Positions 11,594-59,861 of a stretch of 64,000 nucleotides of DNA are shown in pieces (position 1 is the first letter of the stretch; the number at the start of each line of letters is the position of its first letter). The stretch covers positions 495,625 to 559,624 of the forward strand of contig JACKFE010000002.1 of NCBI GenBank assembly GCA_020632635.1, given 5' to 3'. The DNA comes from Nitrospiraceae bacterium (GTDB taxonomy: Bacteria; Nitrospirota; Nitrospiria; Nitrospirales; UBA8639). A model generated the notes under the pieces. The model was not told the DNA's origin. It made no database searches and saw nothing but the letters and a program-made list of their open reading frames with translations. The position numbers and the translations under genes are program-made.

Positions 11594-13540
11594 ATGCCCC
11601 TACATCATGTCGTCGCCAAACTGTGTTTCGTGCTGACCATTGGACTGTTGACCACTGTAATCATCGCCCCGGCTTGGGCCACCGTCCCGATGAATTCGGT
11701 GACTTTGGACAAAGCCGCATATTTCCTCGGACCGGACGGCGAAACCATTCTATTGCAAGCAGGGGACTATTCTTTGGAACCCTTGGCCGATGGCCTCATG
11801 GTTCACCCAGCCGGAGACCAACAAACTATTGCCGTCCAAGGCTCCTTAAAACTCCATAACCTGGATCTACAGGAACCGGTAGCCACGTCGATCCCCGGAC
11901 AACCGGAGAGTGAAACCGCCGACAGACATATCTTGGCCCTGCTCCTCCCGGGAGGAATGACGGTCGAAGCTGACGGCACATACAGCGGCATCCGCTCACG
12001 TGCGGTCAGCCCGCAGGAACTCATCACGGACCCCATGACGGTCTACCTAGACAAACCAATCCATTTTCAATCGGCGGAAGACCAGGATATCGTTCCCCCG
12101 GTCGGCACCTACAATGTGGAATTAGCCGATCAGAAGATTCGTTTGATAGCCATGGATGGCAATGGGGATTTCCTGCTTGAGACTCAAAAAAGTTCCCACG
12201 AAGGCGGTCTACAAGTGCCTGTCGCCCTCTCACTCCCTGGGGCCGCGGGAGAGGAAGCAGACTTGCACTACGTCGTACTGCTGCTTCCCGATGGGGCGAA
12301 CTTCCAAGCCCTTGGAACGTATAGTGGCGTCCGTCCACGCGGACTATTCGACTTTGTCGGCAAGGCCGTCCAAAGTGCCGGTCGTGAGGTGAACAAATTC
12401 GGAAAAAATGCCGGGCGGACCATTCAACAAGCTAAGAAAACGGTGGACAATGCCACACGCCCCATCGGACAAACCATCAATAAGTCCGTGCAAGACGTGG
12501 GGAAAGGACTCGGTCAAGCCAAACAAAATCTTGATAAGGCCACCCGGCCTATCGGACAGGGTATCAACAAGGCCGCTCAAGACGTGGGAAAGGGTCTGAA
12601 TCAAGCCGGAAAAGATGTGGGACGATTTGCCCAGCAAGCCGCGCTGGAAGCTAAAAAGCAGGCAGAATGGTTGGCCAAACAAGCGGCGATGGGTGCGCTG
12701 GAAGTGGCCAAAGCCGCTTGCAAAGCCGGATTAACCGCCAGCCGGATTGCGGCTGACATTCAGGGAAGGATTCTGGGACCGATTATGGGTGCGTTAGCCA
12801 AGGCCTTCCAATTAGACAAAACCCAAACGGCTCTCCGCCAAGCGTTACAGGTCATTAAACAAAAACAAGGCCCCGCCATCCAGGAAGCAATCAATGCCGG
12901 CCTCACGATCACTGAACCCAAAAATCTCAAGACCGTCAAACAATTAATGGACCCCAACCAGATGTGCGAAAGCCCAGGGGCCACCGTTCAACACACATTC
13001 AAAACCATGATTGGGGCACCTCTTCGCGCAGCCCTCACCAAGTCACAAAACGCGAACCCATCTCCCATCCGCTCCCGTGGGACATTCGCCTCGGCCAACA
13101 TCGGAATCGGGGGCAATCTCGCCAAGGTGGGTGGAGGTGAGTTGGGCGTCAGTTATGCCTTTGACTTTGTGCATACACCCCATTGGTATCTGGACCTGGC
13201 CGCCATGCTCAAAACCAACGTAGGCGGCGGCGGTGGGGTCTCCATCGGAATTTTCCCAAAAGTGAATCCCGATGCCGTCGGCGGGTGGTTTCTCGGAGTG
13301 GGTGTCGGATTTCCATTTCCTCATCCCAAATTGGCAAAAGCCATGGATGCCGGCTTGGATGTCTTTTTCGAATTCCCCTTGCAAATTACCCCTCCCTTTA
13401 ATTTCAAGTGGAATTTGACATCTCCACAATTTTTCTTGGACCACTTTCAAGGATTCTCCGTGAGTGTAGGAGCCGGGAAGAGCGTCTCGCCTGTCGATAT
13501 TGCCCTGAAAGCCGGCGTGGGAATCAAGCTGACGAAATAA
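11594..13540 (+). CDS. Secreted protein with two tandem copies of the shared N-terminal module, K/Q/A-rich helical repeats and a Gly-rich C-terminal domain
   Basis: Signal peptide (…IIAPAWATVP). Module copy 1 is ~11699..12004 (ends GTYSGIRSRA) and copy 2 is ~12035..12343 (ends GTYSGVRPRG). Repeats of ATRPIGQxINKxxQDVGKGL. The C-terminus is similar to that of gene 27923..29293. Confidence 0.8.
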   Translation: MPLHHVVAKLCFVLTIGLLTTVIIAPAWATVPMNSVTLDKAAYFLGPDGETILLQAGDYSLEPLADGLMVHPAGDQQTIAVQGSLKLHNLDLQEPVATSIPGQPESETADRHILALLLPGGMTVEADGTYSGIRSRAVSPQELITDPMTVYLDKPIHFQSAEDQDIVPPVGTYNVELADQKIRLIAMDGNGDFLLETQKSSHEGGLQVPVALSLPGAAGEEADLHYVVLLLPDGANFQALGTYSGVRPRGLFDFVGKAVQSAGREVNKFGKNAGRTIQQAKKTVDNATRPIGQTINKSVQDVGKGLGQAKQNLDKATRPIGQGINKAAQDVGKGLNQAGKDVGRFAQQAALEAKKQAEWLAKQAAMGALEVAKAACKAGLTASRIAADIQGRILGPIMGALAKAFQLDKTQTALRQALQVIKQKQGPAIQEAINAGLTITEPKNLKTVKQLMDPNQMCESPGATVQHTFKTMIGAPLRAALTKSQNANPSPIRSRGTFASANIGIGGNLAKVGGGELGVSYAFDFVHTPHWYLDLAAMLKTNVGGGGGVSIGIFPKVNPDAVGGWFLGVGVGFPFPHPKLAKAMDAGLDVFFEFPLQITPPFNFKWNLTSPQFFLDHFQGFSVSVGAGKSVSPVDIALKAGVGIKLTK

Positions 13541-13723
13541 TAAATGTCCTTTTTTGAAACTGATAAAAAGGGCATCACGTCTTTCACGTGCCCCAGCACG
13601 CTTACAGTCATGGAACGAGACATTCTCTGTTATAATATCCATCAAACACCATCCATCCCGATGATCACCAAGGGAAAGGCTGGAAAATGGGCTTTTACTT
13701 CTTATTGCCTTGAGGAATGCTTT

Positions 13724-15344: not shown

Positions 15345-17219
15345 ATGTTTGGCCGTCTTCCTCTCTCTTGTCTAATCCTGGCTTCTTGTCTTGGTGTCCT
15401 GGCAGTAGGCGAAGTTCCTGTTATCTCAATCTCCCTGGCGGGTGAACACCCCTCAAAAGAGACGATTGAAGAGTTCACCCTGCCTGCCATTGAACTTCCC
15501 AGCTCCCTCCATTTTGAGGCACCTGATGGCAGGGAAATTCAAATTTCTGCGGGCACCTATGGATTGTTCTCCGATCAACCCTCTACCTTGACACTTCTTC
15601 CGGAATCGGACAGTGCCCCGACTACAATCCGGGCGGAGGAAATCATACTCGCCGAAGAACTCAGTGCTCCGGTTGCCAGAATACTCATAGAAAATGATCA
15701 GACGACACACCTCCTCCTCTTGTTACCGACTGGACAAGGGTTGGAGGCAATAGGGTCTGTCAGCCAGGTTACCTCACGAGGGAATTTTAGTTTTAATCGG
15801 AAAGCCAGTGCTTCAGCGATTAGCCAAACTCTGACAACACCCAATACTTCAGTTGCCTCTTCCTCAATACAGCGTGAGGCCGTCATAGGGAAATCTCCGG
15901 GAGAAACACTCATTCCCGACGGCCTTCCTACGGGGCTCCCAGGACAAGCACCATTTGGAGTCAGGGTATTGGGCGTCGTCTATGACCCCAAGGCTCCCAA
16001 CCGCCAAGGCCTTCGAGAATTGGTAAACCGACCGGAAATTCTTCGTCAAACCATCACAGCTGCGTGGGAATCTTCACGAAGCAACACCTGCGATGACCTG
16101 AGAGCTCGGTTAGGGCAGGGAGACCTCATCTATTCAGGGGTCACCCTGTATGACCTTGTCTGTAACATGGGGGAAATCACCGATTTTGCCATGCAATCCC
16201 AGGGTCCTTCTTCCGTCGTGTTGCACCTCAACATCCCCGGAAATTATTTGGAGTTTACGAGCACTACTCCCAGTGCCTTGGGAAGTTACGCGGATCCTCG
16301 GTTTTCCGTTCGATATGACCTGCGCGTCATGCTCACACTGTCCATTTCTGGTGGAGACCGCCTCATACGCGTCCAAAAGGCCGCCGCAAGCATCCAGAAC
16401 GCCAAATTGGACTCGCATGGTCTCGTCGGTGATTTGATCCTGACACTCGGGAATTTCTTCACCAATGGAAAACTCACTCCCCTCGCGGAATCCGCCTTGA
16501 ATAGCGCACGGGTTGATCTGACACGGCAAGTGAGCACAAAAATCGAGCCGGCCAATGCGCTGCTAAAAACGCCACCCGGCATGACCTATGCGGGGCGGTG
16601 GGTACGACGGAACACGCTCATTATCGTGTATGCTCCCCTGCCTGGTCCCCTCCCTCTTCAAAATGGGTGGGTGGCCGGTACCATACGATGGAAAAAAGAA
16701 TATGGGGCGACCAATCCCCCTTCCTGTTCGGGACTTTCGTTTAGGTCTACAGTCCAAACAGGGCCGGCCCCCCTTGAAGACCCGGATACCGGGTCCGTCG
16801 GACCGCCACCAACCAAAATCATCGATGGAAGCACCACCGCAGGCCCCTTCCTGGAACAAGGCGGGGAATATACCTGCGCTTATAAGGTGGCCGGATTGTT
16901 CGCCGGAATTCCGAACACTGTCCAGGGGCAAGCACGTGGTCTCACCACCGCGTTGCAATCCAACAACCAATTCTTGGTCACCGGGATAAAGATGGCCCCC
17001 AAAGGTTGGAATGGGCGCATCAATCCCACTCCCGGAACCGCCGGGAAAGATTTTTCCCTAGACCTGTTTATGACGAGTCCCGGCGTGGCTGTGATCACTG
17101 GGAAACAATTCGTGACCCCCAAAAACCCGGGCGATCCAGCTCCATTTCGCCGAGTGATTCAAGGTTCTGTCAAACGACAATCGGGCATTTTTCAACAAAC
17201 ACCGACATTACGCCGATGA
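15345..17219 (+). CDS. Secreted protein with the shared N-terminal module and a large uncharacterised C-terminal region
   Basis: ATG at 15345 is preceded by AAGGAG (15332-15337). Signal peptide MFGRLPLSCLILASCLGVLAVGE. The module ends LLLLPTGQGLEAIGSVSQVTSRG. Confidence 0.8.
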   Translation: MFGRLPLSCLILASCLGVLAVGEVPVISISLAGEHPSKETIEEFTLPAIELPSSLHFEAPDGREIQISAGTYGLFSDQPSTLTLLPESDSAPTTIRAEEIILAEELSAPVARILIENDQTTHLLLLLPTGQGLEAIGSVSQVTSRGNFSFNRKASASAISQTLTTPNTSVASSSIQREAVIGKSPGETLIPDGLPTGLPGQAPFGVRVLGVVYDPKAPNRQGLRELVNRPEILRQTITAAWESSRSNTCDDLRARLGQGDLIYSGVTLYDLVCNMGEITDFAMQSQGPSSVVLHLNIPGNYLEFTSTTPSALGSYADPRFSVRYDLRVMLTLSISGGDRLIRVQKAAASIQNAKLDSHGLVGDLILTLGNFFTNGKLTPLAESALNSARVDLTRQVSTKIEPANALLKTPPGMTYAGRWVRRNTLIIVYAPLPGPLPLQNGWVAGTIRWKKEYGATNPPSCSGLSFRSTVQTGPAPLEDPDTGSVGPPPTKIIDGSTTAGPFLEQGGEYTCAYKVAGLFAGIPNTVQGQARGLTTALQSNNQFLVTGIKMAPKGWNGRINPTPGTAGKDFSLDLFMTSPGVAVITGKQFVTPKNPGDPAPFRRVIQGSVKRQSGIFQQTPTLRR

Positions 17220-22408: not shown

Positions 22409-23080
22409 ATGAAATCCCTGGCCTTTCTTCTCCAAACCCTTCTCCTTCTATTCGTATTAGAAATCGTGTTGGCCAGTTCCTGGGCACACACAAGCCAAGG
22501 AATGGAATCTTCATCACCATATTCAGTCCTACAAATTGATCACCCGATGGAGTTCCAAATGGAGGACAATCAGATTGTTCATCTCCCGCCTGATACCTAC
22601 GCCGTCTTTTCCGATGAAGCAGATCGTCTTCACATTCGCTCCCTTTCTATCAATACCTCCTACAACATTCCTGCAAACCTCATCTCTCATCAGGAATCGC
22701 TTCGAATTCCCCTAGCCCTCGTCATTGTCGAATCGGATAAGAGCAGACATATCACCCTGCTACTCCCGGATGGCCGAGGGTTGGATGCTATCGGAACAAC
22801 AATCATGATTCAGAGTCGGGGAGTAGGTCCTGGAGCCTCTTTTCAATTTTCACGAGAAAAGCGCTATACCGGCGTCATCCTCCAACAAGGCCGTGTCGCC
22901 ACCGACAACGACTGGAACGAAAAGGACTCCGTTTCGTCTACCGGCCCCTCAGACCAACCGCCCGAATCAACGCCCTCCTACGGAAAGGTGACGTTAGACA
23001 AAGGCCGTTTTCAACTCGATAGAGACGCTCGTCGTGTCTTATTCAGGAGATGCAAGACATGTTGGAAGTCACAGCAATAA
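22409..23080 (+). CDS. Small secreted protein made of the shared N-terminal module and a short tail
   Basis: Signal peptide (…LEIVLASSWA). The module ends HITLLLPDGRGLDAIGTTIMIQSRG. Confidence 0.75.
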   Translation: MKSLAFLLQTLLLLFVLEIVLASSWAHTSQGMESSSPYSVLQIDHPMEFQMEDNQIVHLPPDTYAVFSDEADRLHIRSLSINTSYNIPANLISHQESLRIPLALVIVESDKSRHITLLLPDGRGLDAIGTTIMIQSRGVGPGASFQFSREKRYTGVILQQGRVATDNDWNEKDSVSSTGPSDQPPESTPSYGKVTLDKGRFQLDRDARRVLFRRCKTCWKSQQ

Positions 23081-37667: not shown

Positions 37668-37770
37668 CCCCATGCCAATATTTAAAAAGTATAGAAAGAC
37701 TCAGCCAACACTCGCGGGATACCGTGCAGATATCCCGGTCTATCCATCATCAAACTCAAGGAGGTTGCAC

Positions 37771-45373: not shown

Positions 45374-45475
45374 GAGAACCAAATACCTGTCAACCACTTA
45401 GGCAGGAAGGAGGCATTCTCCTTCCTGCCCAGGCAAAACGTGACGTTGGACCTTACGACAAGAGGAGTTTCTCTC

Positions 45476-46012
45476 ATGAGACCATTCCAAATCCCCCTCA
45501 TCGCATTGTTGTTTGCGCTACAATTATCTGTCGCCTTGGCAGCGGATCCCAGCTTTCGGCAGGCCCAGCCGCATCAGATGGCTCCCCAACGGGGCAGCAC
45601 GATTCCTCAATTGCAACTGACACCAGACTATCTCTACCAACAAATCACGGCTCTCCAACAGCAGGTCGTCACCCTTCAAGGTCAAGTAAATCTCCTGCGG
45701 TCCGTGGTTCAGGTTTCTCAAACGGAAACGACGATCCAAGCTGAAAATCTCAGCCTAAAAGCCACGAAGGCTCTAGCCCTGAACTCAGGAAAGGACACCA
45801 CTCTCACCGTTGAGAATGAATTCACACTCACTAGCGCCAAAGACTTGCTGATCAAAAGTGGGAAAACTGCCAACGTGGAAGGTGGCGCCCTTTTGAACCT
45901 CAAAGCCCCACAGGTCAAACTGAATAATGGCAGCAAACCAATGGCCACCGTCGGAAGTATTGTGTCCGGAGGAAAAGTTATCTCAGGGAGTCCAACCATT
46001 TTCGGCCCCTAA
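45476..46012 (+). CDS. Secreted coiled-coil protein with a spike/needle-like C-terminus (paralog of 29386 and 43966)
   Basis: ATG at 45476 follows AGAGGAG. Signal peptide MRPFQIPLIALLFALQLSVALAA. Heptads ITALQQQVVTLQGQVNLLRSVV. C-terminus: LLNLKAPQVKLNNGSKPMATVGSIVSGGKVISGSPTIFGP. Confidence 0.65.
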   Translation: MRPFQIPLIALLFALQLSVALAADPSFRQAQPHQMAPQRGSTIPQLQLTPDYLYQQITALQQQVVTLQGQVNLLRSVVQVSQTETTIQAENLSLKATKALALNSGKDTTLTVENEFTLTSAKDLLIKSGKTANVEGGALLNLKAPQVKLNNGSKPMATVGSIVSGGKVISGSPTIFGP

Positions 46013-48218: not shown

Positions 48219-50288
48219 ATGAAATTCAAAAAACATACGATCGTATTATCCATGGCCGTGGCGATTCTCGCCTCCTCTATAATAAGCATTGCCCCGGCCC
48301 TAGCCGGTACGATCATTACCTTGGAGCAACCCGTCCACTTTCTGAATGCGGAGGGCAGCGACATCATCCTCGAAGCCGGACAGTATGAACTGGCCTCAGC
48401 CGATGCATGGCTACGCGTAACCCCGAGCGACGGACAAGCCGTCGATGCGCTTCTTTTGGAAGCCGTGACCGCACCACATGAGGAAGCGGTCACGGAACCA
48501 TCGGCCCTTTCGGTCCAAGGAGAACAGGCGGATCGCCATCATTTAGTCTTGTTGTTGCCGGACGGCAAACAACTGGAAGCCGTCGGCACGTATTCCGGCA
48601 TCCGTCCACGAGGAGGGTTACGGACTCTTTCTCCCGCCCGCCGAACGCTCGCACTGAACCAGGCCTCATCTTCCACAAGCCCGAAAGTTTCGTCGAGTAC
48701 GCCGACCATAAACCAAGGACAACTGAGCATCCAACCGGGGCCGAGACTGGGAGGCGGCATCAATGTTCCTCAGCCTCCTCTCCAGACAACCGGGAAACCC
48801 GTGCCGAATCCCCCGATTCTCGTTAGTCCGACAGAAAATTTCGAAATTACCGGTTCCGCCTCCCCACAAAAATATTTCACCTGGCATCCCCCAACGTCAG
48901 GTCCAGGCATCTCGTCCTATCGATTTAAAATGGAGGAGGCCGATAATCCCTCAGGCTATGTCTTGGGTCCGACGCCGGTTCCGGCGACATCGGGGACCAC
49001 CATTGCCACATCCCAAATCATTTCGTATCAGTATCGGGGCAAGCGGATACGATGGAGCGTTCAAGCCTGCACCTCGGATGGCCAATGCAGTGCTCCGGCT
49101 TCCCGGATTCTGGTGTGGTCCACAGGACTTCGCCCCCCGCAATTACGTTTTCCTGAATCCGGAGCCACGGTCACCACCTTACAACCCCGCCTTGAATGGT
49201 CGGAGGTTCGCGAGGCGACGTATTATTTGGTGTGCGTCTCTAAGCCGGGAGTCCAATGCCCATCACGCGAGACCGCGCCTGGCAGCAATCCCCATTCCGT
49301 CGTCATCAAAAGGATTGGTCCGTCGAACACGGTGGCTGCGCCGGACCTCACCCAGTTTTTCGGAGAACAGATGAATTGGACAGTGTCCGCCTGCACCACC
49401 GATGGGAACTGCGCCATCCAACCTCAAGTCCGGCCTATCACGATCGCTCAAGCGCCAACCCTACGCAACGGTGGCATCACGTTACGTCCTAGCCGGGCAT
49501 TCGAATGGGTCTCCAACTCCAACGCACCGCAATTCAAACTGTGTGTCTTTACGCAGGGAACCGCCTGTGCGGCTTCCGGAAATCTATTGGAACAAGACGT
49601 AAGCCGGAACAATGGTAAGTTACAGACCGATATTCCCATCCTGAATCAGCTACGATCAATGGCGGGAAAGGGGGTACGGTGGCAAGTCGCGGCCTGTACC
49701 CCCAGGAAATGTCTTTGGTCCACCCCCGCGACCGTATACATCCCGGAATCCGTGTGGCGGGTCATATTCAGCGTCCGGTATATCGACCTCTTTCATGATT
49801 GTGATGAGGCCAGCCCAGGCGACTTAAAGTTTTCATTCCGGGCAAGCATCAGTCCAGAGAATGGCTACTACGAACGCACGTCCGTGAGTAATTTCGACTT
49901 CGGCAATTATAACAATTTCGAATCGGGAACCCAGATTTACGTTGGAAGGCCATTCGCCACCCTTCCCGAGGCCATCCCAGGCGATGAGATCTCGGTGTGG
50001 GGCGTAGCCTATGATTGCGATCGAGCATCCTGTGGTGAAGAAGTGGTCGAGCTACTGACCACCGGGAGCGACGACAAACTTGGAGACATCCCACGTAGGA
50101 ACTGGAAAAGTCATCGGACCGACTCAGCGAGTCCGCTGGGCTGGCTGGAGAGCGATAACTTGCTCGAAATCCAAAGCCGCAACACCAGTTGCTATGCCCT
50201 GATCCAAGGATTACGAGGAACCGATCAAGGACGCTTTGACCATACGTTTTCCGTCTTCTACGAAGTGCAAAAGACAAAAATCTGGTAG
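48219..50288 (+). CDS. Secreted protein with the shared N-terminal module, three Cys-containing ~90-aa repeats and an unknown C-terminal domain
   Basis: Signal peptide (…IISIAPALAG). The module ends LLLPDGKQLEAVGTYSGIRPRG. Repeats carry RWSVQACTSDGQC, NWTVSACTTDGNC and RWQVAACTPRKC. Confidence 0.8.
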   Translation: MKFKKHTIVLSMAVAILASSIISIAPALAGTIITLEQPVHFLNAEGSDIILEAGQYELASADAWLRVTPSDGQAVDALLLEAVTAPHEEAVTEPSALSVQGEQADRHHLVLLLPDGKQLEAVGTYSGIRPRGGLRTLSPARRTLALNQASSSTSPKVSSSTPTINQGQLSIQPGPRLGGGINVPQPPLQTTGKPVPNPPILVSPTENFEITGSASPQKYFTWHPPTSGPGISSYRFKMEEADNPSGYVLGPTPVPATSGTTIATSQIISYQYRGKRIRWSVQACTSDGQCSAPASRILVWSTGLRPPQLRFPESGATVTTLQPRLEWSEVREATYYLVCVSKPGVQCPSRETAPGSNPHSVVIKRIGPSNTVAAPDLTQFFGEQMNWTVSACTTDGNCAIQPQVRPITIAQAPTLRNGGITLRPSRAFEWVSNSNAPQFKLCVFTQGTACAASGNLLEQDVSRNNGKLQTDIPILNQLRSMAGKGVRWQVAACTPRKCLWSTPATVYIPESVWRVIFSVRYIDLFHDCDEASPGDLKFSFRASISPENGYYERTSVSNFDFGNYNNFESGTQIYVGRPFATLPEAIPGDEISVWGVAYDCDRASCGEEVVELLTTGSDDKLGDIPRRNWKSHRTDSASPLGWLESDNLLEIQSRNTSCYALIQGLRGTDQGRFDHTFSVFYEVQKTKIW

Positions 50289-50341: not shown

Positions 50342-52495
50342 ATGAACATACTGTTAATTCTTCTATTCATGGGCCTGCTCACTAGCGTAAGTGTAGCGGA
50401 ACAAGTTCCCATACAAGACCCTGTTGTCGTTCAATTTACTCAGCCCGTATTCTTTGTGAGTCCCGACGGAACACCCTATCTCGTCATGCCCGATACTTAT
50501 ACGGTGGAGCCGGCGCATCCCTGGCTGCGACTCATTCCAGCAGAACGGAAAGACGCCATTCTCATTGAAGCGGCCACAATCAACCATGAGGAATCTCTAC
50601 AAACTCAGACAGCGGTGATCATCGAATCTGAAACGGGGAAGATACATCTCTTGCTGCTGTTCCCTGATGGAAAAGCGCTGGAGGCGAGAGGATCTTCCAG
50701 CGGAATTCAATCGCGAGCAATCTTGCGGGCAACGCTGTCACAAAGACAAATTCAGCAGGCTTTGACGGCAAAACGTCCCTCCAGCCCTAAGCTCTCTTTT
50801 TCCCCCGTTCCCTCAACATCCAAGCCCACGGTCACGCCCCAACTTCCGGGCAATCCTCAAGTCCAGGTTCAGGGAAGCCCGCCGGTTCCCGTACTGGATC
50901 AACCGGCACCGAATGCTTCTCTCGCCAATCCCGCGTTGTCATTTCGATGGCATCCGCCCTCCACGAATCCTGCCCAAACCCGGTACGAATTATGTGTGGC
51001 TGAAGCTGGCACGGTGTGCGGAGCCGCTCAGACGTCTATCGTATTCAAGACAGTGGAAGCTGCAGCGCAGGCGGGAACCGCTCAATATGAATTGGGAATC
51101 GAACCGCCTGCTGGGTCAGCCCAAAACACAACCGGCACCCCGATCACCATCAACCGGTATGATGTCACACTACCGATTCGGTTCCAGGGAAAACGTCTCC
51201 ACTGGTTAATCAGAGCCTGTGCTCCCAATCCGAATAAACTCGTTCTAGGAGGGGGAATAGCGGAAAGCTGTTCACAGTCGAGCCAAAGAACACTTCAATG
51301 GCCACTGCCCCCACCCAAACTTGAGGAACCAGGGATGAACAGTGTCCTGGAGACACTTCGTCCGACATTCCATTGGGGATATGATGCCCTCCAAGGAGTT
51401 GACTATTTTTTATTGTGTCTCTCCAAACCAGGCATCGCATGCCCTAAACAAGCCACGACAACGGACACTACCCTAGTGGTTCAAGTGCCTGTCAATATAA
51501 GCCAATCGCCAAGATCATACAGCCCATCGAGCGACTGGACATTCTTGAGAAACGGACCCTTTCATTGGACCGTCGCAGCCTGTAACCGCACGTTTGGCTG
51601 TCTCTACCAACAGGCTGTGCGCCAAATCTCCCTGGCAAAGCCAGCCGCTCCCATCCTGATCAGCCCGGCTCCAACCGTCGCACTGGGGCTCACGAATTAT
51701 TATTCCAACGGTAATCCACGATCGGAACATCCTGTATCATTCGCGTGGCAATCCGTTCCCAAGGCCAGTCTGTATAGCATTTGTCTCGCACCAATGGGCC
51801 AACCCTGTGGTCCACCTCCCGGTCCCGCGCCTGAGAGTTCGGGAATGATGTTCCGCTCCGGGACAACTCCAGGCACCAATCTCACCCTCCAACTTCCCAA
51901 CGATTTGTGGTGGGATCACGAACAAGGGACTCGATTCCAATGGACCGTATCGGCCTGTAACAGCGTTGGAGTCTGCACGGCCTCCTCACCCCGCCCGGTT
52001 CAATTCAAAGTTTCGATCCATAGCTTTGCCAATCTCTATCCCACGTTTCAATCCAGCCAGTGCACGAATTGTCACGGCATGGCCAATCACAATGCCAAAT
52101 ATCAGCAACATGTCAGTGCAGGCCGATTTCCAGCCGGAACCAATCCCACGACCGGAACGATTTGCGCCAATTGTCACACGGCGGAACGGGGCTTTGCCGA
52201 CGGGTGGAGAGCCCCCTCGGCAAGCTTGGACTTCACCGGCAAAACGTTCGGTGAGACCTGTTCCATGATTCGACACGGAGCCACTTACACACAAAAGGGG
52301 ATGAAACAGCATCTTCTGACAGACGAGCTGGTAACCTGGGCGGTCAGGCATTTACCGGGGAATCCGGTTGTCAATCTCGCATTGTGGGTCCAACGAGTTA
52401 CCAATTGGCTCTCCAAGGCCAATGATTACGAATACCCGTCGGGACGTCCGGAACCGTACACGGTGCGCTGCGGTTCACTGCCAATCGGGGAATAA
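50342..52495 (+). CDS. Secreted protein with the shared N-terminal module, Cys-containing repeats and a C-terminal domain with two CxxCH heme-binding motifs
   Basis: ATG at 50342 (alternative 50309). Signal peptide MNILLILLFMGLLTSVSVAEQ. The module ends LLLFPDGKALEARGSSSGIQSRA. Repeats: HWLIRACAPN, HWTVAACNRTFGC, QWTVSACNSVGVC. Heme motifs: CTNCHG and CANCHT. Confidence 0.8.
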   Translation: MNILLILLFMGLLTSVSVAEQVPIQDPVVVQFTQPVFFVSPDGTPYLVMPDTYTVEPAHPWLRLIPAERKDAILIEAATINHEESLQTQTAVIIESETGKIHLLLLFPDGKALEARGSSSGIQSRAILRATLSQRQIQQALTAKRPSSPKLSFSPVPSTSKPTVTPQLPGNPQVQVQGSPPVPVLDQPAPNASLANPALSFRWHPPSTNPAQTRYELCVAEAGTVCGAAQTSIVFKTVEAAAQAGTAQYELGIEPPAGSAQNTTGTPITINRYDVTLPIRFQGKRLHWLIRACAPNPNKLVLGGGIAESCSQSSQRTLQWPLPPPKLEEPGMNSVLETLRPTFHWGYDALQGVDYFLLCLSKPGIACPKQATTTDTTLVVQVPVNISQSPRSYSPSSDWTFLRNGPFHWTVAACNRTFGCLYQQAVRQISLAKPAAPILISPAPTVALGLTNYYSNGNPRSEHPVSFAWQSVPKASLYSICLAPMGQPCGPPPGPAPESSGMMFRSGTTPGTNLTLQLPNDLWWDHEQGTRFQWTVSACNSVGVCTASSPRPVQFKVSIHSFANLYPTFQSSQCTNCHGMANHNAKYQQHVSAGRFPAGTNPTTGTICANCHTAERGFADGWRAPSASLDFTGKTFGETCSMIRHGATYTQKGMKQHLLTDELVTWAVRHLPGNPVVNLALWVQRVTNWLSKANDYEYPSGRPEPYTVRCGSLPIGE

Positions 52496-52574: not shown

Positions 52575-53543
52575 ATGCAAATTCCCAAATGTAAAATTCT
52601 GTTAATGATAGCCGGAACATTAATGGGTTGGTGGCTGGCAGGCCTCGCCCCAGCCTTGGCCGACACCACCGTGACCTTGGAGCAACCCATTCACTTTTTG
52701 AATGCCGAAGGCAGTGACATCGTCCTCGATGCCGGACAGTATGAACTCGCGTCAACCGATACCTGGCTGCGCGTGACTCCGAGCGAAGGGCAAGCGGTCG
52801 ATGCGCTGCTCTTGGAAGCCCAAGCAGCCACCCATGATGAGTCGCTCACCGAACCACTGGCGGTTTCCGCGCAAGGCGAATCGCCAGATGTGCACCACCT
52901 GGCCCTGTTGCTGCCGGGCGGGAAACGATTGGAGGCCATTGGAACCTACAGCGGCCTCCGATCAAGAGGCACGTTTTCGTTGCTAACGATTCAGCGATTA
53001 AGAACCTTGAGTTCAACCTCACAAAGCACGACACCGACTGAATATTCTACTCCCCTATTTGGTGGGTCGGGAGGCACCCGGAGCTATAACCTGGATTGCG
53101 GTACCCAATCCGTCCTTGTGGGAGTGGTTTACAAGTCTGGGATGTGGCTTGATGCCATTGGGAGTATTTGTCAGCAAATCAATCCCCAAACCGGCGCCTT
53201 AGGAAATGAGTTTACCAGAGGGCCAGTTGGGGGAAGTGGGGGAATTGCCAAGATAGCCCGATGTAACAACGGCCAGGTTGTTCAGGGGTTCAAGGCCCGT
53301 TCGGGCCAGTTCGTCCATGGTGGGAGCCTACTCTGCAGTCCATGGGACCAGGCAGCCAAGGCACCCCAATACTCGGAATGTTTCGCCGGCTGCCCTTTAG
53401 GGAGGTTCAAAAGCTTCGGAGCCGGTGGTACTCAATCTGACATATTTTTCTGCCCAAGCGGAAAGGCCGGGAAGGCTTTTCGCGGAAAATATGGGTGGTA
53501 TATCGACAGCCTCCGCTTTGTGTGTGATTTATGGGATAAATAA
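52575..53543 (+). CDS. Secreted protein with the shared N-terminal module and a jacalin-like lectin domain
   Basis: Signal peptide (…WWLAGLAPALADT). The module ends LLLPGGKRLEAIGTYSGLRSRG. GGSGGTRSYNLDCGTQSVLVGVVYKSGMWLDAIGSIC is similar to the N-terminal domain of gene 20556..22376. Confidence 0.8.
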   Translation: MQIPKCKILLMIAGTLMGWWLAGLAPALADTTVTLEQPIHFLNAEGSDIVLDAGQYELASTDTWLRVTPSEGQAVDALLLEAQAATHDESLTEPLAVSAQGESPDVHHLALLLPGGKRLEAIGTYSGLRSRGTFSLLTIQRLRTLSSTSQSTTPTEYSTPLFGGSGGTRSYNLDCGTQSVLVGVVYKSGMWLDAIGSICQQINPQTGALGNEFTRGPVGGSGGIAKIARCNNGQVVQGFKARSGQFVHGGSLLCSPWDQAAKAPQYSECFAGCPLGRFKSFGAGGTQSDIFFCPSGKAGKAFRGKYGWYIDSLRFVCDLWDK

Positions 53544-53684: not shown

Positions 53685-54314
53685 ATGAGAATGCCTTTTA
53701 CATTAGCCATTGGGATCTTGTGCCTGAGCATGGGAAGCCCCGGCTCAACAGGAGCTGCCCCCAATCCCGATCTAGAAGCGCTGGCTCAAGGTTCTGTGGT
53801 GCAGTTCAGCGGGACGGAGCGGATCTCCCAGCCGTTTGTGTTCGACTTGGATATCACCGCCCCTCACCCTGCCCTCGATTTTGACAATATCGTCGGGCGG
53901 CCCTTTCAGATTGCCGTAGCTCGAGGCCGGGCGGTGGCCGGGATGGTAGAACGGGTAGAACAGAGGGGAGTGTCCGGTCGACAAGGCCAGTATCGCATCC
54001 GCCTCGTGCCGGCCCCCAATTGCCCGGTCGTCTTGGGAAGCATGTGGAACGGAAAAGACCTGTCTCCCACTCAGCAGCCACCGAATAAATTCCTGTCACT
54101 GTTCCAAAGCCGTTCGACAACCGGTACGTTAAATGAAATTCTCTTCGACGCCACGCAGGACAAGGAACGGTTGATCATGCGGTCCGGCAATCAGTATCTC
54201 TCCCTGAGCCCGCAAGGCATCACCGCCTCCACAGCTATCACCGTTCCCACAACGACAGTTCCCAAGCTTCAATCTTCGCCTCGATTGAATTTTCAGAACA
54301 GGCCAAATAGGTAA
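53685..54314 (+). CDS. Signal-peptide-bearing miniature VgrG-like protein (N-terminal gp27-like start fused to a gp5 OB-end/needle-start segment)
   Basis: Signal peptide MRMPFTLAIGILCLSMGSPGSTGAAP. VQFSGTERISQPFVFDLDITAP...IVGRPFQIAV...GQYRIRLVPAP matches the VgrG N-terminus pattern. It is followed directly by PVVLGSMWNGKDLSP...LNEILFDATQDKERLIM, matching the PxVxGSLWNG...NExxFDDxxGxE block. Confidence 0.6.
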   Translation: MRMPFTLAIGILCLSMGSPGSTGAAPNPDLEALAQGSVVQFSGTERISQPFVFDLDITAPHPALDFDNIVGRPFQIAVARGRAVAGMVERVEQRGVSGRQGQYRIRLVPAPNCPVVLGSMWNGKDLSPTQQPPNKFLSLFQSRSTTGTLNEILFDATQDKERLIMRSGNQYLSLSPQGITASTAITVPTTTVPKLQSSPRLNFQNRPNR

Positions 54315-54409: not shown

Positions 54410-57400
54410 ATGAGACGATTTCTTATCATCTCCATGTGGTTCCTCATCGGTAGTTTGATGGCTATAGATTCTCATCTCGAAGCCGGGAGTGACCTTCATC
54501 TTCCGCAGGTGACGCTAAACCAGTCGACCTCATTTCTCGGCTCGGATGGGGACACTATCGAAGTGCCATCTGGAACGTACACAGTGGAACAGGCTGATAA
54601 CTGGATTCGACTCCAACAAGACGAGCGTCGTGATGCCATCATCCTGCAGGCGAGCCCCCTAACACATATAGAGCCTGTCACCCATTCACAAGCCATACTG
54701 AAACAACACGGATTCAACGAATTTCAGCTCATGCTACTACTCCCAGATGGAACCGGCCTCACTGTCACGGGACAGAGCCAGTTAACATCACGAGGGATTT
54801 CGGCGCTGGCCCGTTCACCGACTTCTCCAAAAAGCGCTGGGGGAAAAAGTACCCTTCCTCAGGGCCTTGGATCGGCATCAGCCGGCATTCCCCAAGTGAC
54901 CCAAGCTCGGCCAACCGTGGACGTTCCCACATCCACCGCCTCGCCACTCTTTGAAGCGACTTACTTGCCCTCGTTTAAAGGGACGCGCATGCTGGAAGGT
55001 CGCGTCTCACGCCTCCCCGTCAGCGCCTTTCACCAGCAAATCATTACTAGTACGACCGGGCTCGAACTGCGGACCCGATGCCTGGGTGAGAACGACACGG
55101 GTATGATCGTCGACATGTCCTCCAATCCCATGACCGATACCTTGGAGCCGATCCCCAGAGGACTGTCGCACACCCTACCTCCGACGAGACTGACCACTCT
55201 CTACAATGACGATCATCCCTCGGCAGAAGGGAACCATCTGGGAAGTTATATTTGTGCAACCTGCCAATCTCCTGCGCCACCTACCTCGATTCGAGCCACA
55301 GTGTACGTTTTCAGCCAACGTCGGGCTACGGCCTATTGTACGTTGGAAAAGAAAGAACCCACCGGCTGGCAACCGCTGACCAACCCTCCGTTTCAACATT
55401 TTGGCGGGACCCTGGTGGATGTCGGCCCGCTCCAACCACATGACTACCTGGAAGTTCAAACCCAAGACTTCACCGGATGGCCGGACTATCAAGCCAAGGA
55501 TTATGATACCCGCATGCTTCTCTTCCAACCGACCAGTCCGGCAAACGGATTACTCTATAACGAAAATGCCCGTTCGGATCGTGATCCCAAAATCGTCATT
55601 CCCAATAGCGCCTGGAGCCATGGATCCAATTACGTGTTACTTGGAAAATCTCAGCCACACACTCAATCTAACAAAGGGGTCGAGGTGAACATTGACCTCG
55701 TACGTGGACCGTTGAACCATGGCCAATCTTCTCATACATTTGGCACCTCCCATCTTCTCTCACCAGGTCGGTACTATGTGTGGCTGTATGCGAAAACCAC
55801 TTCGCCGGTCGGGACTCCAACCCCGAAGCCCCATTCGTCCGCCGACATGAACAGGGCTCTTGAGAATGGATTTACCTGCCCACCGATCATTACCCCCAAG
55901 TCGTCCACAAAAAATCCTCAGTTGAGGGGAACGCTCAACTCCAGGGCATTCGACTTTCGGATTATCGCCAAGCAAAACGGCGCTTGGACAGAACGAAAAC
56001 GCCGGACAATCCTGAAAGGCCAAATGGGTGCGAAGGCGGGAGATCTGAATCTTTTCCTCATGGACCTCGATGTGCCCATTCCCACCGAGATCGCCGTTGA
56101 AGTTCAACATCCAACTCAAGATGTGGAATTTTTCCCACAATGGCGGGTTATGCGGAATCCGGATGCCAGTGATTTCACGGTGGCATCTTTTAATACCCTC
56201 TACGACTCCGGTTCACCTCATGCAAGGAAAACCCGTAATGCGGCCAACCTCCTAGCTTCCCGTGGCATGATTCAACCTGGCACCGGGGCCATTCTTGAGC
56301 CCACTGACCAGGCACCCTGGCAATGGGATGCTGATCTCATTGGTCTGCAAGAACTCAGAGACGGAGATGACGATGGATTTGCGGAATACTTTTACGCGGA
56401 TGTTTTTGCCCGAGAAGCGATGCAGATGGGCTCTCGATCCTGGAATGTCATTCGAGGGCAGGACGAAGACTTCCCGAATGCGGTGGCCACCGATGGGCGG
56501 GGTCCGGTGTTTATCACCGAGCACCTTTGGAGGAGTGGGAATGCCAACAACATTTTCCTTCCGAATTCACTTCTGAAGAAAGCCCGTTGCAAGACCTATG
56601 ACCGAACCAATGAATATGAATGTGCCTTGGAGGATGGAGCCAGCGATTTTGTCAAGACGTTTGGCATCCCGGGTCAAATCAGTATCCCACGTTATCGGTC
56701 AGTGACCGCATCCGGACAGCAAGAAGCTGATCGGCCGATCATGGTAGTCAATCTTCATTTGGCTGACGGATCCTCCGGTTGGTTGAAGAGACGCAACCAA
56801 CTCAATAATCTCATGACCAAACTCCGCACCTTTCTCAAGGAAAACCCCTCGGCCTTTAACAGTGAGGGGAAAAACCACCCACACCATTACCAAAATCGAA
56901 TCCTCTTACTCGGCGATTTCAATTGGTCTGCGCATCATTGCGGCGAGCACTATTGGTTCTTGCACACCCTTCGGGAAGCGTTCGGCTATGCGGTGGACGT
57001 ATCGATGGCTGCCAATGACAATGACATGCATGATCGCATGGGCGCCATCGGCTCCAATGGTATTCCACAGAACTGGGAAAGTGCCAAAAGTTGGAAAAAG
57101 GACCCGTCCCGCCATACCAAGTTTCCCTGGTGGATGACTACCCACCGAGGGAAAGCAGGGAACCTGTATGACCGGAATGAACGGTACGATGCCATGATGT
57201 TAGTCGGAGCCGGATGGGCCTATGACGATCCGGTCCGAGAGTATGAAGTTCTGTGGGATCGAAACGGCAATAATCCATTGAATGGTGACTCAAAGGGTGG
57301 TGTGGAAATGGCCGACACGGGGAACCTCGTCACCCAAAATGGGTACCGCCCTCAATATGCGTTGAAATGCCGAAAACCAAGTTGCGAGGAGGAAGATCGG

Positions 57401-57484
57401 ACGAACTCAACGAAACCAGGCGACCCGGCCTTAGATTCTGATCATTTACCCATTCGAGCACGACTTCGGGTTTTTATCCGATAA
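54410..57484 (+). CDS. Secreted protein with the shared N-terminal module, a large middle region and a C-terminal endonuclease/exonuclease/phosphatase (EEP) domain
   Basis: Signal peptide (…LMAIDSHLEAG). The module ends LLLPDGTGLTVTGQSQLTSRG. EEP motifs: FTVASFNTL, LIGLQEL, VVNLHL, LLGDFNW, LDSDHLPIRARL. Confidence 0.8.
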   Translation: MRRFLIISMWFLIGSLMAIDSHLEAGSDLHLPQVTLNQSTSFLGSDGDTIEVPSGTYTVEQADNWIRLQQDERRDAIILQASPLTHIEPVTHSQAILKQHGFNEFQLMLLLPDGTGLTVTGQSQLTSRGISALARSPTSPKSAGGKSTLPQGLGSASAGIPQVTQARPTVDVPTSTASPLFEATYLPSFKGTRMLEGRVSRLPVSAFHQQIITSTTGLELRTRCLGENDTGMIVDMSSNPMTDTLEPIPRGLSHTLPPTRLTTLYNDDHPSAEGNHLGSYICATCQSPAPPTSIRATVYVFSQRRATAYCTLEKKEPTGWQPLTNPPFQHFGGTLVDVGPLQPHDYLEVQTQDFTGWPDYQAKDYDTRMLLFQPTSPANGLLYNENARSDRDPKIVIPNSAWSHGSNYVLLGKSQPHTQSNKGVEVNIDLVRGPLNHGQSSHTFGTSHLLSPGRYYVWLYAKTTSPVGTPTPKPHSSADMNRALENGFTCPPIITPKSSTKNPQLRGTLNSRAFDFRIIAKQNGAWTERKRRTILKGQMGAKAGDLNLFLMDLDVPIPTEIAVEVQHPTQDVEFFPQWRVMRNPDASDFTVASFNTLYDSGSPHARKTRNAANLLASRGMIQPGTGAILEPTDQAPWQWDADLIGLQELRDGDDDGFAEYFYADVFAREAMQMGSRSWNVIRGQDEDFPNAVATDGRGPVFITEHLWRSGNANNIFLPNSLLKKARCKTYDRTNEYECALEDGASDFVKTFGIPGQISIPRYRSVTASGQQEADRPIMVVNLHLADGSSGWLKRRNQLNNLMTKLRTFLKENPSAFNSEGKNHPHHYQNRILLLGDFNWSAHHCGEHYWFLHTLREAFGYAVDVSMAANDNDMHDRMGAIGSNGIPQNWESAKSWKKDPSRHTKFPWWMTTHRGKAGNLYDRNERYDAMMLVGAGWAYDDPVREYEVLWDRNGNNPLNGDSKGGVEMADTGNLVTQNGYRPQYALKCRKPSCEEEDRTNSTKPGDPALDSDHLPIRARLRVFIR

Positions 57485-57692
57485 GGTCGCGATACCTTGC
57501 AGCTTGCTCATGGCGGAACTCAGATCAGAGGTGAGCGATGAAGTGGATCTGACGTTCACACACAGCGCCCCTCGTCATCGGAGATCCAAAACCAGAGTCC
57601 CACGTGACGAAAGCTGCAACCGTCGCCTGGGTTGAAAACTCCGGTTCTCCCGGCTAGGCCTTAATCTCGATCACGACAGGTTAGGAGGGAAT

Positions 57693-59861
57693 ATGCGAGC
57701 ATATTGGACAGTTATTCTTTTGAGCTTGATGATCCATGCAAGCATGGGCACGGTCTATTCAGCATCCGCTCCACCGAAAATTTCTGTGGAAACGCCTATA
57801 TACTTCTCTGCCGCCGACGGGAGTGAAATGCTTCTCACACCTCACGTCTATTCGGTGCAAAGTCGAGATCCATTCCTAGAAATGCGACCCGTCGGGGCAG
57901 ACAGAAAAGAGACGATATTACTCAACGCGACCATCGGCACCCACCAGGAGTCTGTTGGGTCAACTACTGCCTTCCTCACAACAGGAGATGAAGAGAATTC
58001 GTATCATCTTGTTCTGTTGAAGCCGGAGGGAACCGCTTACGAGGCTATCGGCACGACGACAAGTCTCCGCTCCAGGGGAACCACGACACGCCTCACCCCA
58101 ATCCGTGTACAGTCTCTCCTGCAAAATCTGAAGAGCCAGACTGTACCGCTCAACAGACCGCCCCTTTTCCCCATCCCGACTATCCCGCCATCAGAGGTAC
58201 AGACCACGAACCCGTGCGTTCGGGATGTTCGCGAGGATTTCCTCAAAATACGGACGCATGGCGATAAACTCGGGTTCCGTCATACTCAATCACCCGGAGC
58301 CTATACTGGAAGTGGCAGTTCTCATTATCAGGGCATTCAACGATTGGGCAATTATCTGGCCATATCCGGCAGTGCAGCCCATGCCGGTGAAATTATGGTC
58401 GTCGAAATGCAGTCCAGAGCAAAGACCGGCCGGTTTCGTTCCAATCGGCTCTCCTCAAATACGCCCCCCAACAATGACCGGGTTATCAAAGTCATTGAAG
58501 CCAGTCGCACCCTGACTCACGCTGGTGGATTTCAGATCATGGGAGAGGTGCTGGCCGTCGGGGTAGAAGGAAGCAATCAATCCGAAGTGGTGTTCTATAA
58601 CATCAAAGATCCGACCAATCCACAAGAGCTGTACCGGATTTCGCGTTCGGGAACCATCGGAGGGTTTAGCGAGAAACCCAGTGCCGGAGCAACAGCCCTG
58701 GTACAACGCCCGGATGGTCGCTTTCTCCTACTAGTCGGACGGTCGGATTCCAACGTTCTGGATTTCTACCTCTCCCGAAATGCCAATATCCTGACCAACA
58801 CATTTGTCCACGTCGATTCCTGGCACGAGCATGAACTGCAAGGCATGGATCGGGAATTTGGAAACTATCAGAACATCAACTTCGTCCGGCAATGTGACGG
58901 CCAGGTCTTTGTTGTTGGACTTCATAAAAACGTGAACCTAGGAGGCATCCTCAGCGGAGGAGAGGATTGGGCCGATTTGTTTAAACTGGAACTGCTTCAA
59001 ATCGGACAAATCGGAAATCCCGGTATCCTCCGTCATCATACGGTCGTTACGAAAATCGCGAACCGGCATCTGTACTGCCATGACATCTGCGACTTCGATG
59101 CAGGCGCTGGCGTGTATGTCGATTCACAGGGAGAATTGTTCATCTATGGAGTGGAACATTGGCGGCACAAGGGCATTGTCCGGTTCAATGAATTCAGGCC
59201 GGTTCCCTCATCCGTCTCACCTCCCCTGCTCGACCTCAATCAGACCTGGATCGAACTCTATGACGACCGTGCCTTTGGCGATCGCAGTATCATGATCGAT
59301 TTCCGTGACCATTCATTGAGAAATTTTTCTGACTATGATCAAGTTGAAGGATTCGAGGACAAAACCTCCTCCGCCAAGTGGGTCATTCCCTCGGGTTGGC
59401 AATACTTGCTGTTTGAGGACAAATCATTCAAGGGACGCTTGCTCAGACTGTCCGGGACCGGCGGTCTAGGAGCCATTTCCGACTTCAGCCCCAGAGATTG
59501 GAACGATACAGTCTCATCCTCAAAATTTTCTCCCGTCACGATCACACAACTCGGCCAAGCCTGGGTCGAACTTTTCGATGATCATACGTTTAAAGACCGG
59601 CGTCTGAGGATAAACGGAGGTTCGGCTGGAATTTCTAATTACCAAAATATCACTGTGGAAGGACAACGAGGATTTGGGGACAACGTCTCTTCAGCCCGAT
59701 ACATGATCCCCAATGGTTTGGTTTACCGCTTATATGAACATGACTCTTATCGGGGAAAAACCTTGGATTTGGTAGGCACCGGACGAATCGAGGAAATTCC
59801 TGATTTCACTACCCGAAGCTTCAATGACCAAGTCTCTTCGTCCAGATTTATCACACCATAG
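57693..59861 (+). CDS. Secreted protein with the shared N-terminal module, a middle domain related to the C-terminus of gene 2535..4727, and two beta-gamma-crystallin domains
   Basis: Signal peptide (…MIHASMGTVYSA). The module ends LLKPEGTAYEAIGTTTSLRSRG. Four Greek-key motifs: LYDDRAFGDR, LFEDKSFKGR, LFDDHTFKDR, LYEHDSYRGK, each followed by VSSxK/R[FY]. Confidence 0.8.
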   Translation: MRAYWTVILLSLMIHASMGTVYSASAPPKISVETPIYFSAADGSEMLLTPHVYSVQSRDPFLEMRPVGADRKETILLNATIGTHQESVGSTTAFLTTGDEENSYHLVLLKPEGTAYEAIGTTTSLRSRGTTTRLTPIRVQSLLQNLKSQTVPLNRPPLFPIPTIPPSEVQTTNPCVRDVREDFLKIRTHGDKLGFRHTQSPGAYTGSGSSHYQGIQRLGNYLAISGSAAHAGEIMVVEMQSRAKTGRFRSNRLSSNTPPNNDRVIKVIEASRTLTHAGGFQIMGEVLAVGVEGSNQSEVVFYNIKDPTNPQELYRISRSGTIGGFSEKPSAGATALVQRPDGRFLLLVGRSDSNVLDFYLSRNANILTNTFVHVDSWHEHELQGMDREFGNYQNINFVRQCDGQVFVVGLHKNVNLGGILSGGEDWADLFKLELLQIGQIGNPGILRHHTVVTKIANRHLYCHDICDFDAGAGVYVDSQGELFIYGVEHWRHKGIVRFNEFRPVPSSVSPPLLDLNQTWIELYDDRAFGDRSIMIDFRDHSLRNFSDYDQVEGFEDKTSSAKWVIPSGWQYLLFEDKSFKGRLLRLSGTGGLGAISDFSPRDWNDTVSSSKFSPVTITQLGQAWVELFDDHTFKDRRLRINGGSAGISNYQNITVEGQRGFGDNVSSARYMIPNGLVYRLYEHDSYRGKTLDLVGTGRIEEIPDFTTRSFNDQVSSSRFITP

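Follow-up and report, generated by a model that had tools for sequence, protein, structure and literature searches.

The stretch of contig JACKFE010000002.1 analysed here (64,000 nt, positions 495,625 to 559,624 of assembly GCA_020632635.1, Nitrospiraceae bacterium; hereafter the window) raises the question of why one and the same domain heads so many different proteins with predicted export signals. Eleven genes of the window, all on the forward strand, encode a module of ~105 residues directly behind a hydrophobic signal sequence. The first of these genes, g11594, has two modules in tandem; hence there are 12 copies. The DNA of the window matches contig JAGQKA010000006.1 of assembly GCA_020430345.1.

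The 12 copies were used to build a local hidden Markov model (HMM), and a search of the window with it in six frames returned those 12 copies and nothing else. As this search was circular, a second profile was made with 142 modules taken from other organisms, all of them less than 60% identical to any copy in the window. It recovered the same 12 copies with domain i-E-values of 4e-20 to 8e-41, and the runner-up among the 927 six-frame open reading frames (ORFs) had an E value of 1.7. BLASTP comparisons between pairs of the 11 proteins (E 1e-5 to 1e-53) agree with both profiles, and the placement of 12 copies in 11 genes made in the preliminary description therefore stands. The modules begin 25–44 residues after the start codon, and the h-region ahead of each, as judged by sequence inspection, is hydrophobic (Kyte-Doolittle 10-residue mean 2.1–3.2). 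The prediction of a Sec-type signal peptide was thus borne out for every module gene of the window. The start codons that had been chosen at 15345, 46059 and 50342 appear sensible, since they place a normal predicted signal peptide at the N-terminus.

The module had not been recognised as any named domain, and a match to a well-characterised one was sought by profile and by structure. Searches of Pfam and NCBIfam with the 11 window proteins and 100 relatives gave nothing above the curated cut-offs on the module; the SLH, dockerin, LysM and OmpA-like anchoring models did not match it, nor did the Pfam model for DUF1020 (PF06255). PDB sequence profiles and PHROGs likewise gave no match. The sole Pfam match to a module of the window at E ≤ 0.01 is BACON_2 on that of g52575, which is sub-threshold (E 0.006; 16.9 bits, cut-off 25). 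In a set of 66 modules, the faint Pfam matches at E ≤ 1 were to Glyco_hydro_5_C (nine modules, best 0.031), BACON_2 (three, best 5e-5) and BACON (one), so that the BACON and BACON_2 models (PF13004 and PF19190) match 4 of the 66, all under the gathering threshold. Given these sub-threshold matches, the module may be remotely related to Ig-like accessory domains.

An AlphaFold2 model computed from an alignment of the 66 sequences is all-beta with ten strands and has a predicted local distance difference test score (pLDDT) of 92.5 and a predicted template-modelling (TM) score of 0.83. Foldseek found no neighbour for this model in the PDB (best E 0.029, TM 0.30; none with TM > 0.35) or in BFVD (best E 0.012, TM 0.28). 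Hence neither the profile searches nor the structure comparison pointed to a well-characterised domain. With no curated model and no solved relative, the domain family appears to be new, and the modelled fold is possibly new as well. No description of the module family was found in the literature on Nitrospira.

The family is large. A HMMER search that covered 1.84 billion cluster representatives found the module in at least 1,024 clusters at E ≤ 1e-3 and in 780 at E ≤ 1e-10. The cluster members listed are named 'hypothetical protein' only, and searches with the module profile for homologous proteins returned 21 and 15 short proteins, few of them named. A near-identical partial relative of g15345 (P0008) carries the name Nitrospira sp. 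at NCBI. A scan in which each GTDB species was represented by a single genome gave 28 loci, all in metagenome-assembled genomes of Nitrospirales, Nitrospiraceae or Nitrospira; as far as organisms were identifiable, the family is restricted to Nitrospirales. The module was not found in IMG/VR with the patterns used, in GenBank phages or in PLSDB plasmids. The 28 loci carry 1–9 modules per 20 kb or less, mainly as same-strand arrays.

The position of the module in the protein is strict. In 168 relatives with a complete N-terminus, it starts at median residue 28 (interquartile range 25–29), and sequence inspection revealed a hydrophobic h-region in 167 of them, K or R within the first 12 residues in 154, and a lipobox in 26. 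The best 150 relatives range in length from 124 to 1,024 aa. Locus L038 includes a protein with three tandem modules and an adjoining one with two; thus, the number of modules per protein across the family is 1 to 3.

Beyond the module, the proteins differ widely. The 113 tails of the best 150 relatives form 49 BLAST clusters. At the DNA level, g48219 and g52575 share 60–87% identity across the signal peptide and module, to about nt 420, and only background similarity beyond the junction. The pattern of a constant head and a variable tail, first noted in the window, thus reaches far outside it, and the homology of the DNA ends where the module ends. The module looks like a portable leader, the downstream part of which has been swapped many times at one fixed junction. 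The architectural principle of a constant exported head and a variable tail is already known (see below).

Among 100 relatives, the tails include Lipase_3 (four), Peptidase_M23 (two) and eCIS_core (one) domains; PAN, CARDB, BTRD1, Lcl_C, crystallin, EGF and Calx-beta domains also occur, and most tails match no Pfam domain. To judge from these profiles, most tails are binding domains or of no assigned type, not toxins. The tails in the window had been described as otherwise unrelated, and their diversity is indeed high, but two pairs are alike by BLASTP, namely g48219 and g50342 (28% identity over 486 aa) and g11594 and g27923 (25% over 256 aa), and the tail of g52575 is similar to g20304, a protein without the module. 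The types assigned to the tails fared differently. The DUF928 domain of g40206 is secure (Pfam E 1e-21); the same architecture is found in nine loci, and the module junction in this protein is degenerate ('STHAPPSG'). The haem domain of g50342 was upheld by its two CxxCH motifs together with a weak cytochrome c7 match (E 1e-3). Matches to the proposed endonuclease/exonuclease/phosphatase (EEP) domain of g54410 and crystallin domain of g57693 are present but sub-threshold (E 3e-3 and 2e-3, respectively); a representative related to g57693 matches Crystall at E 2.7e-12. Direct confirmation of the jacalin-like lectin proposed in g52575 failed, and the evidence for it is indirect only.

The junction between module and tail is conserved. 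The module ends in G-[TS]-Y-S-G-[IV]-[RQ]-[SP]-R-[GA] in 186 of 202 modules, and the next residue is hydrophobic in 63%. In the AlphaFold models the pLDDT is only about 60 at the junction as compared with 92.5 in the domain, and the junction is thus predicted to be flexible. The charge also changes here: the net charge per residue is −0.084 in the module, +0.18 in the next 40 aa, and +0.05 in the remaining tail. Stand-alone members consist of a signal peptide, the module and a short cationic tail.

The core of the junction, [IVLF]x[SPR]RG, recurs within the tails at other domain boundaries; in general terms it reads hydrophobic-x-[S/P/R]-R-G-hydrophobic. In the family of g11594 and g27923, a conserved 'FAL[IV][RQ]SRG' precedes the Gly-rich C-terminal domain, and the internal copy in g27923 is predicted by AlphaFold to be disordered. 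Enrichment of the core was assessed with one representative per family against 500 shuffles. In exported families without the module, it was observed 14 times as compared with a shuffled mean of 2.9, and none of the 500 shuffles reached the observed number. In module tails beyond the junction, the figures were 5 and 1.3 (reached by 5 of 500 shuffles), and in non-exported families 10 and 7.5 (reached by 102 of 500). In the exported island proteins that lack the module, the motif is conserved between orthologues. Its enrichment in these proteins suggests, at the level of sequence, a common processing or recognition site.

At least 12 unrelated small exported families have the motif 20–40 aa from the C-terminus in the form hydrophobic-hydrophobic-[RSP]-R-G-[IVL]-E-[GS]-E, with an acidic tail behind it. 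This C-terminal tag is present in four proteins of the window (Table 1) and in many ORFs of L006–L012 and L028, and no Pfam or NCBIfam model covers it. It has the look of a pro-peptide or sorting signal peculiar to the lineage.

The Gly- and aromatic-rich C-terminal domains of g11594 and g27923 each follow a disordered 'I[RQ]SRG'. AlphaFold predicts eight long antiparallel strands for a C-terminus of this type (pLDDT 85). An outer-membrane beta-barrel, from which the location of the module would have followed, was considered for it and dropped, as Foldseek gave no porin or OmpX-like match; the best matches were GFP-like barrels (E 3.6e-3, TM 0.24–0.29), and a search of PDB sequence profiles gave none. 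The domain as modelled resembles a membrane barrel.

The neighbours of the module genes include predicted exported homologues of phage-tail proteins (Table 1). The most conserved of them, in 12–13 loci, are CCbh-type proteins, represented in the window by the products of 29386, 43966 and 45440, which show weak matches to Gp5_trimer_C, DUF2345 and the small Francisella-type TssI. CCbh1 lies directly downstream of a module gene of the g27923 type, with a helical tail, in 10 loci, and every g27923-type module gene has a 29386-type gene after it. Members of the tube-like (gp19) family carry Pfam PF06841, and the window copy reaches the TIGR01409 cut-off for a twin-arginine translocation (TAT) signal. 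A twin-arginine-type motif is present in 22 of 32 tube-like relatives, and the canonical form [ST]RRE[FL]L in the 18 closest with a complete N-terminus; distant relatives have a Sec-type signal or none. No description of a TAT-exported tail-tube protein was found in the literature. The VgrG-like protein of the window matches Phage_GPD with 41 bits (cut-off 30.1) and may be the product of a decayed gene; VgrG-like proteins of other Nitrospirales (Phage_GPD, Phage_base_V) are 540–560 aa long and have Sec signal peptides.

The order CCbh2, TAT-tube, CCbh2, module genes, VgrG-like is found in the window, L001, L003, L004, L037 and L038, and the same small gene blocks recur over the 28 loci and the window in diverged Nitrospirales. 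As a check on ascertainment, contigs were also fetched by way of tube-like relatives and not of the module. Both contigs with a TAT-type tube (L037 and L038) hold the same block with module genes; L039, which has a distant Sec-type tube relative, has no module genes. The conserved gene order suggests that exported tail-like proteins take part in the shared step. Among the window proteins, none of the sheath, baseplate or Omp85 type was detected, and neither the window nor the conserved neighbour families include a recognisable gene for an outer-membrane transporter, whether of the Omp85/ShlB type or of another.

In the window, g46059 is the first module gene past the spike-tube-spike block. 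It is followed consecutively by g48219, g50342 and g52575 with gaps of 51–79 nt, and the genes downstream of the other module genes are DsbA-like, spike-like, tube-like or further module genes. No immunity-like small gene follows a module gene of the window. An exported metzincin, conserved in five loci, is also encoded, and a second, variant metzincin-like protein (QEVGHTFGLDH) is found near it.

Several further genes were noted. The pairing of a DsbA-like oxidoreductase gene with a module gene directly ahead of it is repeated in L008, L012 and L024. A gene for apolipoprotein N-acyltransferase (Lnt) lies inside the island. The two adjacent DUF4384 paralogues at the start of the window are 65% identical over 191 aa, and two or three DUF4384 genes in a run precede the module arrays of L010, L013, L018, L020 and L024. 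The WD40-repeat protein at the other end, which has an N-terminal hydrophobic segment, continues past the window to 1,182 aa on the contig, and in 11 loci it is conserved next to module arrays. The match of a short ORF to the FRG domain is confined to the last part of the profile (positions 60–90 of 94), and the ORF is probably a gene fragment.

Table 1. Positions of module genes, their neighbours and related features; coordinates (nt) refer to the window unless a locus is named, and signal peptides are predicted.
Feature	Position	Strand	Module copies	Description
g11594	11594..13540	+	11684-12010, 12026-12349	signal peptide, two tandem modules, basic helical region, internal 'IRSRG', Gly-rich C-terminal beta domain
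g15345	15345..17219	+	15474-15788	signal peptide, module, 476-aa tail without assigned type
g22409	22409..23080	+	22514-22828	short gene: signal peptide, module, 83-aa tail
g27923	27923..29293	+	28016-28342	signal peptide, module, Ala/Lys-rich helical region, internal 'IQSRG', Gly-rich eight-strand beta domain
g40206	40206..41390	+	40290-40598	signal peptide, module, DUF928 domain
g46059	46059..48167	+	46143-46466	signal peptide, module, Gln/Ala-rich helical tail
g48219	48219..50288	+	48303-48617	signal peptide, module, Cys-containing repeat tail
g50342	50342..52495	+	50414-50725	signal peptide, module, repeat tail, two CxxCH haem-binding motifs (residues 574 and 608)
g52575	52575..53543	+	52659-52976	signal peptide, module, Gly-rich tail related to g20304
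g54410	54410..57484	+	54494-54802	signal peptide, module, 890-aa tail with weak EEP match
g57693	57693..59861	+	57765-58085	signal peptide, module, tail ending in beta/gamma-crystallin-like repeats (weak match)
Gly/aromatic-rich C-terminal domain of g11594	12980-13540			
Gly/aromatic-rich C-terminal domain of g27923	28880-29293			
29386 (CCbh1)	29386..29892	+		exported small protein: Sec signal peptide, coiled coil, beta-helix
43966 (CCbh2)	43966..44535	+		Sec signal peptide, coiled coil, gp5C/VgrG-tip-like beta-helix
45440 (second CCbh2 paralogue)	45440..46012	+		immediately upstream of g46059
Tube-like (gp19) protein	41727..43073	+		canonical twin-arginine signal SRREFLKK
Tube-like paralogue	61223..62314	-		twin-arginine signal SRRGFL
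VgrG-like protein	53685..54314	+		Sec signal peptide; between two module genes; shortened to 209 aa
Full-length VgrG-like, L001	12419-14098			
Full-length VgrG-like, L004	12254-13876			
Full-length VgrG-like, L005	12057-13703	-		
Full-length VgrG-like, L037	14180-15796			
Metzincin	31444..32532	-		exported; intact HELGHALGLKH; CARDB domain
Metzincin block	31444-32532 (-), 37672-38298 (+), 30440-31258 (-), 32620-33780 (-)			metzincin flanked by two paralogous exported proteins; conserved in five loci
C-terminal tag	g23425 residue 107; g38328 residue 269; g17660 residue 367; g32620 residue 348			
Module protein, L038	2391-4700			three tandem modules
Module protein, L038	4984-6711			two modules
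DUF4384 paralogue	233-808	+		
DUF4384 paralogue	862-2265	+		
ORF with FRG match	5093-5434	+		
DsbA-like oxidoreductase	13544-14500	+		directly after module gene
Apolipoprotein N-acyltransferase (Lnt)	18862-20526	+		
WD40-repeat protein	62729-64000	+		

Three roles had been suggested for the module at the outset: a docking or trafficking domain, a removable prodomain, and a common anchor. A removable or recognised pro-domain, or else docking linked to the tail-like proteins, is favoured by three features, namely the disordered RxRG junction with its reuse elsewhere, an acidic module that borders a basic linker, and a gene order that is conserved. The preferred reading, which is put forward tentatively as possible and short of probable, is that the module serves these proteins as a portable escort or pro-domain, peculiar to the lineage and placed at their mature N-terminus, and that exchangeable cargo is joined to it by a motif read by a shared extracytoplasmic factor, possibly with docking of the cargo to the exported tail-like proteins. 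Members of the family would be exported by Sec, according to their predicted signal peptides; cleavage at the junction and docking we infer. After export, the acidic module would escort or mask the basic part downstream, since an acidic module beside a basic linker suggests masking or solubilising of a cationic part until its release. Through the module, all members would also be handled alike in one step, probably by being delivered to a shared partner, for which the co-encoded exported phage-tail homologues are candidates. A shared extracytoplasmic factor, most likely a protease, would then read the junction and detach the module. The island metzincin is a candidate for this enzyme: a cut after Gly of the matrix metalloproteinase type would suit it, given the hydrophobic residue that follows, and a cut after Arg, of the trypsin or thrombin type, is just as possible.

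A comparable order of parts is known from eukaryotes. Cathelicidin precursors have a signal peptide, a conserved acidic ~100-aa cystatin-like pro-domain and a variable cationic C-terminus that is released by a protease. By analogy, the order of parts and the charge pattern of the module proteins are similar, and stand-alone members come closest to this arrangement. However, the two are not homologous, and many module tails are large folded domains and not peptides.

A number of observations weigh against the escort or pro-domain reading. Forms with two or three modules in tandem fit a pure pro-piece awkwardly, and lectin-like domains, an RCC1 propeller and c-type haem domains are cargo with no obvious need for a pro-domain. 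A few module proteins are encoded alone or in pairs among housekeeping genes, such as P0169, a solitary lipoprotein with an RCC1 propeller, and the lipase-tailed P0117, which lies away from any island with a second module gene ~1 kb upstream. The conserved junction could serve binding instead of cleavage, and the link to a protease is a guess.

Alternatively, the module might be a permanent docking foot that is not removed and ties the members to an extracytoplasmic scaffold of exported tail-like proteins, i.e. a VgrG-like hub, a tube and spikes. Anchors of phage receptor-binding proteins and cargo adaptors of type VI secretion systems (T6SS) and extracellular contractile injection systems (eCIS) have a conserved N-terminal attachment part and a swappable C-terminus, and are encoded near tube, spike and hub genes. 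The module family has the same layout beside the same kinds of genes, and its variable C-termini, which like those of phage receptor-binding proteins include lectin-like and enzymatic domains, are in line with this, as are the many conserved polar residues of the module. A docking foot also gives the best fit to the order of the CCbh2, TAT-tube, module and VgrG-like genes and to the pairing of g27923-type genes with CCbh1. Yet the known systems are assembled in the cytoplasm without signal peptides, whereas here every component has a predicted Sec or TAT signal; and no sheath or baseplate genes were seen. hhalign found no homology between the module and 26 neighbour families (best probability 10.8%, for the DUF4384 family; ≤ 1% for the tube-, spike- and VgrG-like families), and the module has no sequence or fold match, including in PHROGs and BFVD. 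A docking foot moreover leaves unexplained the stand-alone modules, the lipoprotein versions, and the solitary genes far from tail-like genes. It is considered doubtful, with an appreciable chance of being right. Rather improbable is the further idea that the module is a generic BACON-like beta-sandwich spacer or stalk with no dedicated pathway, which holds exported domains off the membrane or binds glycans. The faint matches to Glyco_hydro_5_C, BACON_2 and BACON, among them that of the g52575 module, the N-terminal position, and the lipoprotein signal of some members are consistent with a spacer, but every Pfam match is under the cut-off, TM scores against the PDB are ≤ 0.35, and an invariant Arg junction, an acidic-then-basic charge pattern and stand-alone forms would be unusual for a passive element.

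The remaining two readings, a trafficking domain of toxins and an outer-membrane translocation signal, start from known exported families. In the first, the module would serve a system of polymorphic toxins or effectors with which bacteria compete, like the N-terminal domains of MafB (DUF1020) or the escort domains of SitA. The preliminary description had remarked on this logic and regarded the classical signal peptide as a departure from it. That contrast falls away on comparison with known systems. TpsA and CdiA begin with a Sec signal and a conserved N-terminal domain. MafB and SitA do so as well (PMC4287609, PMC8546572). MafB of Neisseria is similar to the module proteins in its Sec signal, its lineage-restricted N-terminal domain of unassigned function, the short motif that ends the constant part, its variable C-terminus, the clustering of the genes in islands, and an unassigned route across the outer membrane (PMC4287609). 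It differs in that there is no sequence relation to the module, as the DUF1020 model has no match; DUF1020 is about three times as long as the module, and the N-terminal regions that have been cloned span ~340–370 residues (PMC4287609). SitA of Myxococcus likewise has an exported, family-defining N-terminal escort domain and exchangeable modular C-termini, but its escort domains are ~375 aa long and always lipidated, as compared with 105 aa and a lipobox in ~15% for the module (PMC8546572). The cargo differs too: MafB tails act as toxins, and MafI immunity genes and spare cassettes accompany them; SitA cargo consists of nucleases with SitI immunity that are delivered by outer-membrane exchange (PMC8546572), while module tails are mostly not toxin-like and no immunity genes were found. 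When the features that define polymorphic toxins (PMC3482391) are applied, the conserved N-terminus and variable C-terminus are present, as are paralogue arrays and a recombination break at the junction, but a downstream immunity gene is lacking: none was found in the window, where several module genes abut, or after lipase-tailed P0117, which has no same-strand gene downstream. Toxin-like tails are few, being the Lipase_3, Peptidase_M23 and eCIS_core examples and, in the window, only the weak EEP match; in L035, a module gene has a Lipase_3 fragment downstream of it. The other tails are mostly binding domains, repeats, haem domains or without a Pfam match, and neither the DUF1020 nor the two-partner secretion (TPS) model in Pfam matched. 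Thus, the logic of a constant head and a variable tail was retained from the preliminary description, and a strict polymorphic-toxin system is very unlikely because immunity genes were not found and the tails are seldom toxin-like.

An equally slight chance is given to the module as an outer-membrane translocation signal for a dedicated transporter, as TpsB reads the TPS domain. This would agree with the diverse cargo and with the strict position of the module at the mature N-terminus, which leaves Sec first, and the TPS domain of TpsA and CdiA too follows a Sec signal directly and precedes variable C-termini. That domain is a beta-helix of ~250 aa which requires its TpsB partner. The module, on the other hand, is a compact domain of 105 aa and not a beta-helix, module proteins do not match Haemagg_act in Pfam, and neither a TpsB-like (ShlB/POTRA) gene nor any other outer-membrane transporter gene is present in the window or as a conserved neighbour.

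A more far-reaching proposal, itself unlikely, is that the islands encode an extracytoplasmic tail-derived structure consisting of a TAT-exported gp19-like tube, a Sec-exported VgrG-like hub and CCbh spikes, for which the module is the cargo or fibre adaptor and hydrophobic-x-x-R-G-hydrophobic the maturation site. If this were true, each genome would encode at least ten interchangeable proteins, cargo or fibre, that dock through the adaptor; the structure would then be an apparatus of a new type, for secretion or at the surface, and tail proteins would have found a new use.

In wastewater plants, soils and oceans, nitrite is oxidised by Nitrospira and its relatives, some of which perform complete nitrification. 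To our knowledge, their surface and secreted proteins are almost uncharacterised. The module tags ten or more proteins with predicted export signals per genome and at least a thousand clusters, all of which can be listed with one profile; a large and formerly anonymous part of the exported proteome of Nitrospirales can thereby be catalogued. With the family come a fold that is likely to be new, a candidate motif for processing, and a link to phage-tail homologues that bear signal peptides. The RG motif shared across the exported proteins of the islands and the tight linkage to Sec- and TAT-exported tail homologues, of which no description was found in the literature for such module genes, make it more than a routine domain of unknown function. 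If the link to the tail proteins holds, the module would be part of an undescribed way of handling exported proteins or of an extracytoplasmic re-use of phage-tail parts.

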